Positions 40,791-54,801 of a stretch of 64,000 nucleotides of DNA are shown one piece after another. This DNA is from Gammaproteobacteria bacterium (lineage in GTDB: Bacteria > Pseudomonadota > Gammaproteobacteria > Eutrophobiales > Eutrophobiaceae): positions 73,666 through 137,665 of the forward strand of contig SCUJ01000010.1 of NCBI GenBank assembly GCA_004297165.1. Direction: 5' to 3'. The notes under the pieces are model-generated. The model saw only the letters and a program-made list of their open reading frames with translations. It did no database searches and was not told the DNA's origin. Every line of letters starts with the position of its first letter. Within the stretch, counting starts at the first letter, position 1. The translations under genes were made by a program, and so were the position numbers.

Positions 40791-41450
40791 ATGAAGTACT
40801 TTCACACATTGCTTCTCACGCTCGCCGTTTCATCCACACTGTGGCTCACAACCGCTTATGCCACCCCCATCATCAGCGAAGTCCTCTACGATGGTTCGGG
40901 GGGCGACGCTGACGATGTCTTCACGGAGATCTATGGCGCCCCTGGGATGCTACTGGATGGCTGGACGCTGACCGGGATCAATGGCAGCGATGGCGCGACC
41001 TATCGCGTCATCGATCTGAGCGGCGTCATTATCCCTGCTGACGGTTACCTCGTCATCGCCACGGCCTCCGCCCAAATCGGTCTTGCGAGCCTCGTGGATT
41101 TCATCGCCAACGTCGACTGGCAGAACGGCCCCGATTCAATCCAGTTGCGCGACCCGACGGGTATAGTAATGGACGCCCTTCAATACGGCGACGCCGGCAT
41201 CCACAATCACGGCGAAGGGGCGCCGGCTGCAGCGATCGTTGCCGGGCACAGCCTTGCCAGGATGAACCCGACACCCGATATGGATAATAATCAAATCGAC
41301 TTTATAGATTTATCCGCACCAACACCGGGGACAGGTCCTTATGTCAGCGAAGTGACGGAGCCGTGGAGCATAAGCATGTTGCTCACCGGGATAATCTTGT
41401 TGTTACGCAGACAAAGGAGTCCAATGTACCAGAGGGAAATCCATTGCTGA
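40791..41450 (+). CDS. Exported lamin-tail-domain protein with variant PEP-CTERM-like tail
   Basis: Signal peptide, IISEVLYDGSGGD...FTEIY, QNGPDSIQL, VTEPWSISMLLTGIILLLRRQR. Confidence 0.75.
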   Translation: MKYFHTLLLTLAVSSTLWLTTAYATPIISEVLYDGSGGDADDVFTEIYGAPGMLLDGWTLTGINGSDGATYRVIDLSGVIIPADGYLVIATASAQIGLASLVDFIANVDWQNGPDSIQLRDPTGIVMDALQYGDAGIHNHGEGAPAAAIVAGHSLARMNPTPDMDNNQIDFIDLSAPTPGTGPYVSEVTEPWSISMLLTGIILLLRRQRSPMYQREIHC

Positions 41451-41556
41451 AACCAACATGACATAAACAAGACATTCACTTTTATACGGTTGGAGGTGAT
41501 TGTCGGGAGGACTATGACGCGGTTAAGAGGGATTATTATTGTGTAGTATTTGGTTA

Positions 41557-42279
41557 TCAGGGTATTGGTAGAAACACTGCGGTCGCCATCCGCTGGATGA
41601 TTTTTTTGATCATCCGATTGTTCTTCCCAGCCATAACCATGGCCAAGGAATCCTGCAAGGCGATAAGTTTACCGAATAATCGTTCGTAGCTGCGATTCTC
41701 GACCTCGCCTGGCAGGGAGTTGCTGTAGATGAGCGGACGGCCCTCGATGTCCCGCGCCTCGCTCAATTTCCACACAGCCAATTCGATGTTTCTCGCGCTG
41801 TTGTACAGCGCCTGTGAATCAACGCTGTCATACAGGAAAAATTCGGTTTTGTAACGATAAGACGCCATCACCATCGATGTCAGTCCCAAGATATAACAGA
41901 AGACCCGATCGCCCTTGAATCCCGGCATGAGTGATAACTCTATCGCCTGGGCGCCAGAAACCCCGTTCAATTCCTGGAAATGCCAATTGCTGGTGCGACT
42001 GAAGATCCTATTGACGCTCTCGGCGACCTCAGGATGCGGCGATTTGGCCAATTCGCGGGGATTGCGCTTATACAGCTTTTCCATCAATTCACGCAGATAG
42101 GCGCGCGCCTCACGGACATTGATCTCCATCACCTGGTTCATGTCCGACTTGCCGAGGGAATACAGTCTGAAGCGATCTGCCTGCGGACCGTCTTCTATAG
42201 GGTGAGTTATACCGCATGCAGTAGTGATCAGCATCAATGCCATCATTACTCCACAGCCATGCTTTTCCGTGGCATGCAT
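41557..42279 (-). CDS. Hypothetical lipoprotein
   Basis: Hydrophobic leader ending ITTAC; 240-codon ORF coupled to upstream methyltransferase. Confidence 0.65.
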   Translation of the reverse strand: MHATEKHGCGVMMALMLITTACGITHPIEDGPQADRFRLYSLGKSDMNQVMEINVREARAYLRELMEKLYKRNPRELAKSPHPEVAESVNRIFSRTSNWHFQELNGVSGAQAIELSLMPGFKGDRVFCYILGLTSMVMASYRYKTEFFLYDSVDSQALYNSARNIELAVWKLSEARDIEGRPLIYSNSLPGEVENRSYERLFGKLIALQDSLAMVMAGKNNRMIKKIIQRMATAVFLPIP

Positions 42280-42283
42280 TCTT

Positions 42284-43498
42284 TTACAAATGTCTTCGAT
42301 GATCCGAAAAGGCAAAACCACGCAAGGGTTTATGATAATTTCTCCCCAGCACCATGACCTTGAAACGCTCACCCATCCCGGTTGGCAGAGTCAGGATTTT
42401 CGCCTGCACCAGGGCTCTGGCATGCGATCCTCGCTCGTCTTCCGCCAGCCTGTTGATCAATCCTTCCAGACCGCAGGCCAGCAGAAACATCGCTTGATTC
42501 GTGTAGCCCAACAAGTCAAGGCCGGCATCTGCTCCCGCTTCCGCTACGGCGGTGAAATCCACCGAGGCGGTGATGTCCTGCAACCCAGGATAGAGAAAGG
42601 GATTGGCATGCACCCGGTGCCGGTAATGGCACAATAAGGTTCCCCGATCGCGTTGGGGGTGATAGTACTCACGCCTGGTATATCCATAATCGATCAGCAG
42701 CATGATCCCCTGTTCCAGCGCCGCGGCAAAGCCACTTACCAAGGCGATCAATCCGGGATTGATCTCGGTGATGTACCCATCAGGCCAGGTATCATTAAGC
42801 TGATCCTTGATCTGCATCACTTGGGTAGTTGTCTTCTGGTCCGCGATGGTCTTGGTCCAGGCGAACCCGTCCAGATCTTCACAAACGCGATGCTCATAAA
42901 TCGCCGCTTCGGTAAATTCGATCCGCACTACCGGCTGGGCATCGAGAACCTCGTTGGCCAGCATGACCCCACGAAAACCCCTCGCCGGCAATCCATCGAG
43001 CCAGACGATTCTGTCGAGGAGATGCGGTACGCTGTTCGCCAGGTGCAGCCGCTGGCGCGCCTTCAGTTCCGCGCTGATCTCCAGGATGAAATAGCGCTCC
43101 GGAAGACATCCCAACAATTCCAGCTCGCGCAGCAAATCCGCGGCCATCACGCCGGCGCCGGCGCCGATCTCAAGCAGGGAACCGTCGCCCATAGTTTGGA
43201 GGATCTCCGCGCATTGCGCCGCGAGGGTGCGCGAGAAAAGCGGTGAGATCTCGGGGGCGGTTACGAAATCCCCCGAGCTGCCAAATTTCCGCGTTCCGGC
43301 GTTGTAATAACCCAGCCCAGGCTCGTAGAGCGCCATCCACATGAAGCGATCGAAACCGATCGATCCGCAGGTTTTTTCGATGACGGTTCTGATACTGGAT
43401 ATCAGGGCCTTGCTGTGGGCGAGGGCATCAGGGTCAGGATGCAGCAGAGCATCGATGTCTCGATTCATTCCATCAGCTATCTGCTGGACTGGTGTCAT
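42284..43498 (-). CDS. SAM-dependent methyltransferase, MidA/NDUFAF7 family
   Basis: ALYEPGLGYY, GDFVTAPEISPLF, EIGAGAG, ANEVLDA, IDYG, QDITASVDF, MGERFK; start uncertain. Confidence 0.9.
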   Translation of the reverse strand: MTPVQQIADGMNRDIDALLHPDPDALAHSKALISSIRTVIEKTCGSIGFDRFMWMALYEPGLGYYNAGTRKFGSSGDFVTAPEISPLFSRTLAAQCAEILQTMGDGSLLEIGAGAGVMAADLLRELELLGCLPERYFILEISAELKARQRLHLANSVPHLLDRIVWLDGLPARGFRGVMLANEVLDAQPVVRIEFTEAAIYEHRVCEDLDGFAWTKTIADQKTTTQVMQIKDQLNDTWPDGYITEINPGLIALVSGFAAALEQGIMLLIDYGYTRREYYHPQRDRGTLLCHYRHRVHANPFLYPGLQDITASVDFTAVAEAGADAGLDLLGYTNQAMFLLACGLEGLINRLAEDERGSHARALVQAKILTLPTGMGERFKVMVLGRNYHKPLRGFAFSDHRRHL

Positions 43499-50173: not shown

Positions 50174-52060
<1,887 letters not shown>

Positions 52061-52110
52061 TATCGCGGCAAGCCGATCGGATACGGCTGACAGGTTGTAA
52101 GTGAATCCTG

Positions 52111-52138
52111 TTGCTTTCCTGATCGTCACCCTTATAAT
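52111..52138 (+). promoter_or_regulatory. sigma70 promoter of the tRNA gene
   Basis: TTGCTT-16 bp-TATAAT. Confidence 0.6.
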
Positions 52139-52210
52139 CCGTGCTTCGTAAAGGCGGATGCCGGCAGACCGGCCGGGCATTCGCGGCAGCGATCAGATTT
52201 TTTTTATCGC

Positions 52211-52525
52211 GGGCCTGTAGCTCAGTTGGTTAGAGCAGTGGACTCATCAGTAATAATGGTGCGTTCACACCGGAAGGTGTGAAATGAACGGGATGAATTC
52301 AGGGAACCCATAACAACTCGGTTGATGGCAATCCTGAGCCAAGCCGGGGGTACACCCCCGGAAGGTGCAGAGACTACCTGGGAACTTTAGTGTTCTTAAT
52401 AACAGGCTAGAGCGTCCCGCTCCCCAGCAACTCCGTGTGCGGGAGATGAGATAGTCCATTCCCGTCAGAAATGACGGACAGAGTGAATCCATTGGTCGTA
52501 GGTTCAAGTCCTACCGGGCCCACCA
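52211..52525 (+). tRNA. ileX: tRNA-Ile2 (CAU, lysidine type), exons 52211-52247 and 52486-52525, interrupted by a group I intron
   Basis: Joined exons give a 77-nt cloverleaf: acceptor GGGCCTG/CGGGCCC-A-CCA, D arm AGCTCAGTTGGTTAGAGC, anticodon stem GTGGA/TCCAT with loop CT-CAT-AA, T arm GTAGG-TTCAAGT-CCTAC; lacks fMet hallmarks; position after rpoD matches ileX. Confidence 0.9.
52248..52485 (+). ncRNA. Group I intron, IC3-like, 238 nt, no ORF
   Basis: P1 with U.G at the splice site, P2 with GGAA loop, P3 CGGGAUG/CGUCCCG, P4 UUCAGGG/UCCUGAG, GGCAAUCCUGAGCCAAG and GAAGGUGCAGAGACUA core motifs, P7 GACUA/UAGUC, P9 with GAAA loop, terminal G52485. Confidence 0.93.
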
Positions 52526-52674
52526 TTTCATCTCTTGCTGCGCCATGCCAGCGATGCGTGGACACCACCCCAAGGCGACTTTGATCGATATCAATGAACC
52601 GATCACAGCGCGGATGCTAGTTTAGACCAATTGGCGGCAACAGTAAGGTCTGCCCAATCGCCTCATCATGAGAC

Positions 52675-54801
52675 ATGCCCACCCCACGATCCAAACGTGA
52701 TCTGACTCTGAACGGGACTGTAATCAGCGCCTGTCCGCACGATTGTCCCGACGCATGCAGCATCATCACGACGATCGAGAACGGCCGCCTGGCGAAAATC
52801 TCCGGCAATCCCAATCATCCGGTAACACAGGGTTACATCTGCCGGAAATTCGCGGCGGCACCGGCGCGGATCTATGCCAAGGATCGCCTAATCCAGCCCC
52901 TGCGGCGTACAGGTAAAAAAGGCTCAGGCGAGTTTCGACGGATCTCCTGGCCCGAGGCGATCGAGGTCATCGCAGAGCGCTGGAAAAACGATATCCAGGA
53001 ACATGGGCCGTTCAGTATCGTGCCGTTCTATGGCTCGGGAACTGAGGGACTGATCAACGGGCGGATCGCCGGCAAGCGTTTCTTCAACCGTCTGGGGACC
53101 GTGCAACTCAACCGCACCATCTGCACCAAGAGCGGCCGGGAAGGTTATCGCTATACCATGGGCGCCTCAATGGGGGCCGATCCCACCGCGATCGTGGACA
53201 ATAAATTGATCATCGCCTGGGGTTGTAATACGCCCACGACCAGCATCCATCACCAGGGCTATCTGCACCAGGCGCGCCGGAACGGTGCTGTATACGCCGT
53301 CATCAACCCGGCAAGGATCCGGGGCGCAGAGAACGCGGATCATTTTCTGCAACCGCGTCCGGGCAGCGATGCCGCGCTCGCCCTGGGCATGATGCATGTC
53401 ATCATCAAGGAAAACCTCCATGATGCCGATTTCATCCGCGACTATACGCTGGGCTTTGAAGAGTTGCGGGGACGGGCCGAACAATATCCACCGGAGCGGG
53501 TCGCCGCTCTCACGGACATCCCCACTGACGTCATTGAAGAATTTGCAAGACTCTATGCCCGCTTGCGGCCTTCGTTCATCTACGTGGGTCCGGGCTGCCA
53601 GCGGCACAGTAACGGCGGGATGACCCTGCGCACACTGGCATGTCTGCCGGCCCTGGTCGGGGCTTGGCGCTGGCGCGGCAGCGGCCTGTATTTTCCCACC
53701 AGCACTATCTTCCCGGTCGAGACATCCTCACTGGAAGGCAGCGACCTCCGGCCCAATCCCCCGCGTCGCTATAACATGATTGGGCTTGCCGACCTGCTGG
53801 CGAATGAGGATCCGCCCGTCCGCAGTCTTTATGTTTTTAACGGCAACCCGGCAACGGTTTTATACGACCAGAACAAACTGCGAACACTCCTGGCGAGGGA
53901 GGAATTGTTTACCGTTGTGCATGAACAATACCTGACCGATACCGCCCGTTATGCGGATATCGTCCTGCCGGCGACCACGCAATTCGAGCAAGACGATATA
54001 TTATTTTCCTACTACCATCTGAGCGTCCTGCTGAACCGGCAGGCGATTGCGCCGGTGGGCGAATGCAAATCCAATCTGGAAACCTTCAGCTTGCTGACGG
54101 AGGCCATGGGATTCACCGATCCGTGTTTTCGACAAGACAGCGATGAAATCATCAACGATATTCTTTCTCTCGATCATCCCGCTCTCACGGGCATAACGCT
54201 CCCTGAATTGGAGAAATCCGGCTGGGCGAGAGCGAATCTTGGGGCCGCCCATGACTTCGTAAAGCAGGGACGCTTCCCGACTCCGTCCGGTCGAATTGAA
54301 TTTTTTTCCGGCACAATGCAACAGGCCGGCCATGATCCCCTGCCGGACTACATCCCGCCGCAAGAAAGCCGGGAGGCGACGCCGGACCTGTTTGCGCGCT
54401 ATCCCTTGTATTTCCTGACCTCGTCCGCGCGCGCCTCCCTCAATTCGAATTACGCCCAGCATAACGGCATACCTGCCGGCAAGGAGAAACCGCTGCTTTT
54501 CATCCATGCCGAAGATGCGAAAGCCCGGAATATAACCAACGGCGACCTGGTCTGCGTATTCAACGACCGCGGTCATTGTCATATCACGGCGGAGGTCGGC
54601 GACGCGGTGAGACCGGGTGTCGTCGCCTGCCCTGGACTCTGGTGGGACCATCAATATCCCGAAGGGGGCAATCCCAACCACACGACGCCGGATTTCACCG
54701 GGTCGATCGGGGGAGGCTCGGCATTCAATTCAAATCTCGTGAACGTGTGCCCTGTGCGAGAGGACGTTCAGCACGGAAAGAGATATGCCGTCCCGCGCTG
54801 A
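52675..54801 (+). CDS. Molybdopterin (Mo/W-bisPGD) oxidoreductase with N-terminal 4Fe-4S site, YyaE/MopB_3-like, no Tat signal
   Basis: CPHDCPDAC...GYIC, RISWPEA, RTIC, NGNP, TARYADIVLPATT, C-terminal dinucleotide-binding domain (HAEDA..RNI..GD.V.VFN.RG). Confidence 0.9.
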   Translation: MPTPRSKRDLTLNGTVISACPHDCPDACSIITTIENGRLAKISGNPNHPVTQGYICRKFAAAPARIYAKDRLIQPLRRTGKKGSGEFRRISWPEAIEVIAERWKNDIQEHGPFSIVPFYGSGTEGLINGRIAGKRFFNRLGTVQLNRTICTKSGREGYRYTMGASMGADPTAIVDNKLIIAWGCNTPTTSIHHQGYLHQARRNGAVYAVINPARIRGAENADHFLQPRPGSDAALALGMMHVIIKENLHDADFIRDYTLGFEELRGRAEQYPPERVAALTDIPTDVIEEFARLYARLRPSFIYVGPGCQRHSNGGMTLRTLACLPALVGAWRWRGSGLYFPTSTIFPVETSSLEGSDLRPNPPRRYNMIGLADLLANEDPPVRSLYVFNGNPATVLYDQNKLRTLLAREELFTVVHEQYLTDTARYADIVLPATTQFEQDDILFSYYHLSVLLNRQAIAPVGECKSNLETFSLLTEAMGFTDPCFRQDSDEIINDILSLDHPALTGITLPELEKSGWARANLGAAHDFVKQGRFPTPSGRIEFFSGTMQQAGHDPLPDYIPPQESREATPDLFARYPLYFLTSSARASLNSNYAQHNGIPAGKEKPLLFIHAEDAKARNITNGDLVCVFNDRGHCHITAEVGDAVRPGVVACPGLWWDHQYPEGGNPNHTTPDFTGSIGGGSAFNSNLVNVCPVREDVQHGKRYAVPR

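Follow-up and report, generated by a model that had tools for sequence, protein, structure and literature searches.

The closest described relatives of the element reported here are the group I introns of transfer RNA (tRNA) genes, of which 5,292 were counted in 80,413 bacterial and 1,028 archaeal assemblies according to the Williams 2020 preprint (bioRxiv 10.1101/2020.01.27.920355). In that preprint, 'Ile2.5Ug' is one of four classical classes, all of which are IC3 in GISSD, and a hairpin after P7 is borne by the seeds Dba165.Lys.2Ug, Pam37.Asn.4Ug, Mba55.Phe.2Ug and Mga42.Leu.1Ug and by introns of transfer-messenger RNA (tmRNA); no subgroup label is given there to the seeds with this hairpin (P7.1). 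Genes split in this way are missed by annotation: in the tRNAscan-SE 2.0 paper (PMC8450103) a missing fMet or Ile2 gene was explained by a group I intron in 36 genomes, and tRNA-Ile2 introns are named for Acidovorax and Burkholderia. The locus compared with these systems is a tRNA(CAU) gene at positions 52211-52525 (+) of a 64,000-nt stretch of contig SCUJ01000010.1; the whole analysed stretch (G+C 57.4%) is called the window. This is very probably the chromosomal ileX-type tRNA-Ile2(CAU) gene of an uncultured gammaproteobacterium, and a group I intron of 238 nt without an open reading frame (ORF) interrupts it between nucleotide 36 and A37. Intron and tRNA were identified, the exact junctions were placed, the conserved, covarying structure was traced and the distribution of the family was mapped by the comparisons below.

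The split tRNA-Ile2 gene

The intron (52248-52485) is inserted in the anticodon loop, between tRNA positions 36 and 37. Exon 1 ends in ...GGACUCAU (...CUCAU), closing with the anticodon; exon 2 begins AAUCC and has CCA encoded at its 3' end. The boundaries are fixed because, of the U and G candidates close by, the pair U52247/G52485 alone brings the anticodon loop back to 7 nt. Joined exons were folded by ARAGORN into a canonical 77-nt cloverleaf with anticodon CAU, and their top annotated match in 5,426 complete E. coli genomes was tRNA-Ile (83.1% over 77/77 nt). The exact 40-nt exon 2 was found at 115 loci of species-representative genomes, 103 of which are uninterrupted tRNA genes; 47 of these 103, from other Gammaproteobacteria, also have the exact exon 1 and are 100% identical to the spliced sequence, so that the predicted spliced RNA is, letter for letter, an ordinary tRNA gene of other Gammaproteobacteria. 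C4-G69, C5-G68 and G27.U43, which we take to be TilS/tRNA-Ile2 identity elements, are unchanged across 112/112 sequences of the intron family described below.

The split gene was missed by ARAGORN in its default run on the window. In intron mode the outer limits were right, the junction was wrong and the gene was called tRNA-Gln(CUG); this call was rejected, because it would leave a 5' exon with a last base other than U and because the product of the CAU junction matches real tRNA genes exactly. The expectation of the initial annotation that standard annotation may miss or miscall this gene was thereby borne out, in agreement with the tRNAscan-SE 2.0 paper (PMC8450103).

Intron structure and its comparative support

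Homologues were collected by searching the 20-mer GAAGGTGCAGAGACTACCTG (P7 and the start of P7.1) against species-representative genomes. Helices were drawn by hand (Table 1), and the window intron and 111 homologues were aligned with MAFFT (alignment A2, 112 sequences). The Rfam family RF00028 (Intron_gpI) matched 52238-52478 with 66.2 bits (E 1.4e-14, model positions 1-253 of 253), above its gathering score of 50 bits, and this was the sole Rfam match across the 64-kb window; the homologues L043, L004 and L003 scored 77.6, 72.5 and 56.7 bits. The Rfam match, together with the CAU cloverleaf of the joined exons, upholds the initial annotation of a group I intron that splits tRNA-Ile2(CAU) after the anticodon. 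The details which that annotation had given (P1 as CAUCA/UGGUG with U52247.G52259, pairing in P2, P3, P4, P6, P7, P8 and P9, and a terminal G) also stood, since all helices could be drawn and standard pairing was found in 94.3% of cells across the 112 sequences, against 85.6% in column shuffles and 36-45% with slid partners. Changes on both sides were seen in 41 pairs, a number reached by 0/500 shuffles. The unconstrained minimum free energy (MFE) fold had -88.3 kcal/mol (z = -3.9; shuffles as stable, 0/200) and yielded P1, P2, P3, P4, P5, P6a, P7.1, P8 and P9.

At the 5' splice site, U52247.G52259 is flanked on each side by C-G and A-U, and the P1 pairs C-G, A-U, U.G and C-G are invariant (112/112 sequences), as are U-1, the first intron base C and the terminal G. 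P7 holds the guanosine-binding site in group I introns; its 5' strand fits the Rfam consensus AGAGACUA and its pairs (6/6) do not vary in the 112 sequences. P3 pairs in 99.2% of cells, six pairs being constant and one changing on a single side. The stretch GAGAUAGUCC (J8/7-P7 3') is nearly invariant in the family, with the single exception of GAUAUAGUCC in L083. Relative to the Rfam model, the window intron has an extra 34 nt after the P7 5' strand (AGACUA) and before P3'; the P7.1 hairpin is common to the whole gammaproteobacterial family and has an A-rich 3' internal loop, an invariant outer stem and an inner stem that covaries in 2/5 pairs, switching between GC, AU and CG. P8 is variable in length across the family, and distal P5 was badly aligned by MAFFT and was not relied on.

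Family introns measure 226-321 nt (median 249; 111 complete cases), which makes them too short for an endonuclease gene, and Pfam gave nothing meaningful for the three ORFs (80, 53 and 37 amino acids (aa)) that overlap the intron or exon 2; the annotated lack of a homing endonuclease ORF was thus confirmed. Insertions of 20-60 nt were seen in the P7.1 terminal loop or the P1 loop of L084, L096, L098, L137 and L163. In L083 (OZ245781.1, Azotimanducaceae) an extra small hairpin, GGUGAC-UUUA-GUUACC, stands between P7.1 and P3', at the P7.2 position (A2 columns ~327-343).

Table 1. Coordinates of the split gene and of the intron helices in the window.
Feature	Position	Strand	Description and basis
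tRNA-Ile2 5' exon	52211-52247	+	acceptor 5' strand, D arm, anticodon-stem 5' strand, loop CU, anticodon CAU (52245-52247); ARAGORN on joined exons
P1	52245-52261	+	CAU/CA 52245-52249 with internal guide UGGUG 52257-52261; U52247.G52259 wobble at 5' splice site
Group I intron	52248-52485	+	238 nt, no ORF; Rfam RF00028; U52247/G52485 boundaries
P2 hairpin	52264-52283	+	8 bp, 52264-71/52276-83, GGAA (GNRA-type) loop; 8/8 pairs covary; in MFE fold
P3 5' strand	52289-52295	+	CGGGAUG; pairs with 52413-52419; in MFE fold
P4-P5-P6 domain	52299-52366	+	hand-drawn helices, MFE fold
P4	52299-304/52332-337	+	invariant
P5/P5a	52308-314/52321-328	+	distal part 59.8% paired in MAFFT alignment
P6	52338-340/52364-366	+	invariant
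P6a	52344-350/52355-361	+	compensatory changes in 6/7 pairs
P7 5' strand	52370-52376	+	G(A)GACUA, bulged A52371; pairs 52370, 52372-76 with 52452-52457; pseudoknot with P3
P7.1 hairpin	52377-52406	+	between P7 and P3'; outer stem CCUG/CAGG, inner GGAAC/GUUCU, conserved 3' internal loop UAAUAA
P3 3' strand	52413-52419	+	CGUCCCG; hand-drawn helix; alignment
P8 hairpin	52420-52445	+	CUCCC/GGGAG (52420-24/52441-45) and inner GCA/UGC; 7/8 pairs covary; MFE fold
J8/7 and P7 3' strand	52446-52457	+	AUGAGA, then UAGUCC
P9 hairpin	52462-52477	+	6 bp, 52462-67/52472-77, GAAA tetraloop; 5/6 pairs covary; MFE fold
Terminal guanosine (omega G)	52485	+	precedes 3' splice site; invariant alignment column G275, 112/112 sequences
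tRNA-Ile2 3' exon	52486-52525	+	A37 A38, anticodon-stem 3' strand, variable loop, T arm, acceptor 3' strand, discriminator A, encoded CCA

Relation to the Azoarcus type and distribution of the family

The Azoarcus tRNA-Ile intron has the same host tRNA and the same insertion point as the window intron (CAU/...G/AAUCC, slashes marking the junctions), and the two share the splice-site U.G with a GUG guide, the terminal G, the lack of an ORF, compact size, GNRA-capped P2 and P9, and similar P4-P6 and P7 sequences. In the Azoarcus seed (Aol6.Ile2.5Ug), however, AGACUA runs directly into GAC-GGCACC without P7.1, which is present in the window; all 80 Burkholderiales-type introns examined were likewise without it. 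J8/7 is AUGAGA in the window and AAGGCA in Azoarcus (J8/7-P7', AAGGCAUAGUCC); P3 is CGGGAUG/CGUCCCG as against GGUGUC/GGCACC, and J3/4 is shorter in the window. The receptor motifs CCUAAG and UAUGG, both of which the Azoarcus seed has in P5 and P8, were not found in window 52248-52485. The window intron begins with C and has 238 nt, whereas that of Azoarcus begins with A and has ~205 nt, and the families differ in the same way (Azoarcus-type introns, 198-224 nt, starting with A; window family, 226-321 nt, starting with C).

Profile hidden Markov models were built from the window family and from the Burkholderiales (Azoarcus-type) family, within which scores were ~205 bits and a median of 179.6 bits, respectively. 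The window intron scored 210.2 bits on the window-family profile and 25.2 bits, over its 5' half only, on the Burkholderiales profile; for Azoarcus Ile2.5Ug the respective scores were 28.5 and 168.5 bits. The top non-family scores on the window-family profile (40.7-54.9 bits, over nearly the whole profile) were those of the P7.1-bearing seeds Asn.4Ug (54.9 bits; no hit on the Burkholderiales profile), Lys.2Ug (48.9; 28.1), Phe.2Ug (48.4; 30.0) and Leu.1Ug (40.7; 5.4), all above any classical IC3 seed: Leu.3Ug had 35.9 bits (69.5 on the Burkholderiales profile), Arg.5Ug 24.1 (69.1) and fMet.2Ug 10.3 (48.4). The two tRNA-Ile intron types are thus less close to each other than either is to introns in different tRNAs. 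The introns of cyanobacterial and plastid tRNA-Leu(UAA) and of alphaproteobacterial tRNA-Arg(CCU), which are IC3, lie in another tRNA and at another site, have no P7.1 and fall with the Azoarcus type (24-36 bits on the window-family profile, 69 bits on that of Burkholderiales).

The Lys.2Ug, Asn.4Ug, Phe.2Ug and Leu.1Ug seeds resemble the window intron in the hairpin that follows AGACUA at once and has a 3' internal loop rich in A (..AAUAA..), in the end of P3, (G/A)UG followed by AAUUC, and in P3', AGCG(U/C)CC; the J8/7-P7' of the window, AUGAGAUAGUCC, is identical to theirs. Unlike the window intron, they interrupt other tRNAs at other anticodon-loop positions and are distant (~50 bits as against ~205 within the family), and the Mga42 (Leu.1Ug) seed has an additional P7.2. 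By these profile scores, which are not a phylogeny, the window intron is placed with the P7.1-bearing tRNA introns and not with the Azoarcus/Burkholderiales family.

The identical tRNA and insertion site, the CAU/GUG-type P1, the GNRA loops on P2 and P9 and a 5' half (P3-P7) that can be aligned, with 28.5 bits for the Azoarcus seed on the window-family profile, would also be expected of an Azoarcus-type IC3 intron, i.e. of the betaproteobacterial tRNA-Ile lineage now residing in a gammaproteobacterium. Such an origin is nevertheless very unlikely: on the Burkholderiales profile the window intron remains at 25.2 bits, confined to the 5' half, where Azoarcus reaches 168.5 bits and cyanobacterial Leu.3Ug and Arg.5Ug reach 69.5 and 69.1 bits; P7.1 is conserved where the Azoarcus type passes from AGACUA directly to GAC-P3'; J8/7 and P3' agree with the P7.1-bearing seeds; the CCUAAG/UAUGG receptors are missing; and lengths and first base differ. 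On the aligned sequences, then, the gammaproteobacterial family occupies the Azoarcus insertion site with a different core variant, in which P7.1 stands between P7 and P3'. The initial annotation had equated both site and core with those of the Azoarcus IC3 ribozyme; the site was right, and the core has to be given up in view of P7.1, the missing receptors and the scores of 25 and 168.5 bits.

The two types also differ in host range. A scan for the Azoarcus-type arrangement beside GACTCAT gave at least 120 matches, almost only in Burkholderiales-type genomes (Polynucleobacter, Limnohabitans, Massilia, Rubrivivax, Rhodocyclaceae and Neisseriaceae among the matches listed) plus a few in Bacteroidota. 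The 20-mer GAAGGTGCAGAGACTACCTG, in contrast, found the intron in at least 120 species-representative genomes, nearly all of them Gammaproteobacteria outside Burkholderiales: among the matches listed, Xanthomonadales/Lysobacterales, Steroidobacteraceae, Woeseiaceae, marine Pseudomonadales and others. Cultured carriers among these matches are Lysobacter daejeonensis, Luteimonas aestuarii, Rhodanobacter fulvus, R. ginsengisoli, Dyella mobilis, D. acidisoli and Granulosicoccus, with assemblies including Lysobacter daejeonensis GH1-9 and Rhodanobacter fulvus Jip2, which look, by accession series, to be older public records; carriers known as metagenome-assembled genomes (MAGs) belong to Steroidobacteraceae, Woeseiaceae, Azotimanducaceae, Rariloculaceae, K189A, Acidiferrobacterales and Ectothiorhodospiraceae. 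The Bacteroidota with the Azoarcus-type pattern by GACTCAT are Cyclobacteriaceae, Saprospiraceae, Ekhidna (two loci), Aquimarina, Fulvivirga and Agaribacillus (loci L207, L213, L232/L270, L235, L249, L261, L264, L286, L289, L293 and L315).

All 111 complete homologues (111/111) share the junctions GACTCAT/C...G/AATCC. Intron sequences differ by up to 35% across the 112 sequences, and the intron nearest to that of the window, among the matches listed, has 84% identity (L108). Presence is patchy among relatives, since the closest RpoD relatives among the matches listed (L001 and L002) have an intronless gene with an identical exon 1, whereas L003, L004, L043 and L052 carry the intron. Exon and intron distances are correlated (Mantel Spearman r = 0.39; reached by 0/500 permutations), in agreement with a family that was mainly inherited vertically, with losses. 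The survey of ileX loci suggested in the initial annotation returned a same-site intron family in at least 120 species-representative genomes and an intronless gene in other relatives. Its claim of novelty, which was to fall if close homologues were already catalogued, is weakened by these close homologues at the identical site and by the class 'Ile2.5Ug', catalogued in the Williams 2020 preprint.

Two further loci bear on the history of position 36/37. L344 (JBNKDE010000018.1, a gammaproteobacterial MAG) has the exact exons and site of the window around a third, P7.1-bearing intron type of 240 nt that starts with A; it has a different P7.1-like hairpin, AGACUA-GGUGGAUUGG..., and GGAUGAAUUGCUGG as in the Leu.1Ug seed, with profile scores of 48.6 bits (window family) and 25 bits (Burkholderiales). 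L243 (JBMTZD010000141.1, a 2.5-kb contig binned as Steroidobacteraceae) has exons of the Steroidobacteraceae type (GCACAGCGGTTAGTGC D arm) around an Azoarcus-type intron of 198 nt (155.9 bits on the Burkholderiales profile), and is either a case of intron replacement at the site or a short contig that was mis-binned. Three lineages are thus seen at the site: the Azoarcus/IC3 lineage (Burkholderiales), the P7.1 type of the window (other Gammaproteobacteria) and the A-starting, P7.1-bearing type of L344. It is conceivable, though on balance doubtful, that tRNA-Ile2 36/37 is a recurrent landing site which unrelated group I lineages have colonised independently at least three times, replacing one another. 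If so, this would imply ongoing mobility free of endonucleases, for example by reverse splicing with the 3-nt CAU/GUG pairing as its guide, or else a selective benefit from gating tRNA-Ile2, the unspliced or unmodified form of which would be read as tRNA-Met.

Genomic setting, splicing and AUA decoding

The split gene lies ~150 nt past rpoD in the neighbourhood tsaD / rpsU-yqeY-dnaG-rpoD, and in most related Gammaproteobacteria examined an intronless tRNA(CAU) gene is found ~30-150 nt from the rpoD stop, i.e. at the orthologous position. The best 80 RpoD relatives listed are named gammaproteobacterial taxa or unclassified Proteobacteria/Pseudomonadota MAGs (top identity at least 71% among the matches listed; named relatives among these include Sedimenticola, Thiocapsa, Competibacteraceae, Steroidobacteraceae, Woeseiaceae, Pseudomonas and enterics), and none of the 80 has a Burkholderiales or 'beta' lineage label. 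Judged by these relatives, the host is a gammaproteobacterium outside Burkholderiales, as the initial annotation had supposed. The window DnaG has an exact match in the NCBI assembly GCA_040960765.1 and in the Logan assembly of run SRR8426588; RpoD, taken from ATG 50183, gave no exact record on look-up. Over 11.8 kb, the GCA_040960765.1 locus and the window share 98.9% identity, and the rpoD-to-oxidoreductase spacer, which includes tRNA and intron, is identical at 614/614 positions in this independent assembly; the split gene is therefore not an assembly artefact.

Directly downstream, at 52675-54801 (+), a 708-aa molybdopterin oxidoreductase of the dimethyl sulphoxide (DMSO)-reductase/formate-dehydrogenase superfamily is encoded; it scores under every NCBIfam equivalog cut-off, and its JGI name is 'anaerobic selenocysteine-containing dehydrogenase'. 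A promoter and terminator scan of 51950-52750 accepted neither a promoter nor a plus-strand terminator. The stretch 52111-52138 (+) has a weak TTGCTT and, 16 nt further on, a perfect TATAAT (52133-52138) that lies ~70 nt before the tRNA 5' end; this pair was rejected by the consensus scan, and the T-run at 52199-52206, immediately before the tRNA, was not accepted as a terminator by the same scan. Elsewhere in the window, a 90-nt 'tRNA-Gly(GCC)' called by ARAGORN at 41551-41640 (+), overlapping the end of the minus-strand ORF 41557-42372, is most likely a false positive, as 41300-41900 had no Rfam family even at E up to 1.

From its conserved structure the intron most probably self-splices. 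Following the standard group I pathway, the precursor would fold into P1-P9, including the P3/P7 pseudoknot; free guanosine bound in P7 would attack the phosphate after U52247, held in P1 as the U.G wobble; the terminal G52485 would then bind at this guanosine site, and U52247, through its freed 3'-OH, would attack after G52485. The exons would thereby be joined into the 77-nt tRNA, whose C34 would presumably be converted to lysidine by TilS, so that AUA would be read as isoleucine.

Several points weigh against this account. Splicing, for this intron as for its family, is predicted from sequence. P3, P4, P6, P7 and the outer P7.1 stem are constant in the family, so that their pairing is consistent yet without covariation support and counts neither for nor against, and the search pattern itself contained the 5' strand of P7 and the first bases of P7.1. 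No convincing P10 was found that would pair the 3' exon (AAUCC) with the loop preceding the guide sequence, and the upstream scan passed no sigma-70-type promoter. The analysis covers 64 kb of the genome, and a second intact tRNA-Ile2 or a tRNA-Ile(UAU) may be encoded elsewhere; in addition, some intronless genomes have 2-3 loci that match the 3' exon (OZ250151.1, CBDFKC01, OY730442.1), and tRNA-Ile2 is thus not always single-copy.

The sequence-based view of splicing, the 64-kb limit and the multi-copy tRNA-Ile2 of some Gammaproteobacteria would all suit a decayed relic that no longer splices, the gene being a tRNA pseudogene and AUA being read by a tRNA encoded elsewhere. This is extremely unlikely, because the catalytic core is essentially invariant and the peripheral helices keep pairing through compensatory changes in 112 sequences that differ by up to 35%, because the exons are identical to functional-looking intronless genes, because the gene is at the orthologous position downstream of rpoD, and because three complete chromosomes with the split gene show no twin. 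In these single-chromosome assemblies (OZ242169.1, OZ252091.1 and OZ000552.1), which have the exact exon 2, one occurrence each was found among the 115 exon-2 matches, i.e. there is no intronless twin with the same 3' exon. The initial annotation had called tRNA-Ile2 generally single-copy; these three assemblies fit that statement, whereas several intronless genomes with 2-3 loci do not.

The genomes with several exon-2 loci are OZ250151.1 (L358, L365 and L393 at 2,376,001-2,400,000, three 3'-exon loci within ~24 kb), CBDFKC010000003.1, CBDEFQ010000004.1 and OY730442.1; their hosts are sponge-associated Gammaproteobacteria (Spongiihabitans, Poriferihabitaceae) and Arenicellales, and most of the loci are intronless. 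No recognisable 5' exon was seen upstream of the 3'-exon match in L398.

A true group I intron might also splice in the cell with the help of a protein cofactor or chaperone and so not be fully autonomous. Outside the compact IC3 class, many group I introns require proteins in vivo, and P10 is not evident here. This is unlikely in view of a compact, GC-rich and strongly stabilised fold (-88.3 kcal/mol, z = -3.9) with GNRA loops capping P2 and P9, and neither a conserved neighbour gene nor an intron ORF is able to supply a dedicated maturase. Self-splicing is thus kept as the most probable course. No other tRNA(CAU) was found within the 64-kb window by ARAGORN or Rfam, and the split gene may well be the only AUA-reading tRNA gene of this genome; it is plausible, with indirect support from the orthologous locus and from the three assemblies without an intronless twin, that AUA decoding here depends on splicing.

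The current understanding of group I introns is unchanged by the finding. As its insertion-site class Ile2.5Ug is already catalogued by Williams (2020; bioRxiv 10.1101/2020.01.27.920355), the window intron adds to the known group I tRNA introns. In a literature search that covered the text of this preprint but not its per-class table, no paper was found that names a tRNA-Ile intron in Gammaproteobacteria outside Burkholderiales, and as far as was found the widespread gammaproteobacterial family is apparently undescribed by name. With its additional P7.1 at the Azoarcus site, the ileX intron of Gammaproteobacteria is a naturally occurring compact variant that can be compared with the Azoarcus ribozyme in studies of structure and folding; together, the Azoarcus and window introns make a test case for whether tRNA introns reach one site independently. 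Genomes with this intron will seem to lack tRNA-Ile2, and this can be mistaken for incompleteness of a MAG or for unusual AUA decoding; as Xanthomonadales, Steroidobacteraceae, Woeseiaceae and marine Pseudomonadales commonly carry the family, the annotation gap is systematic.

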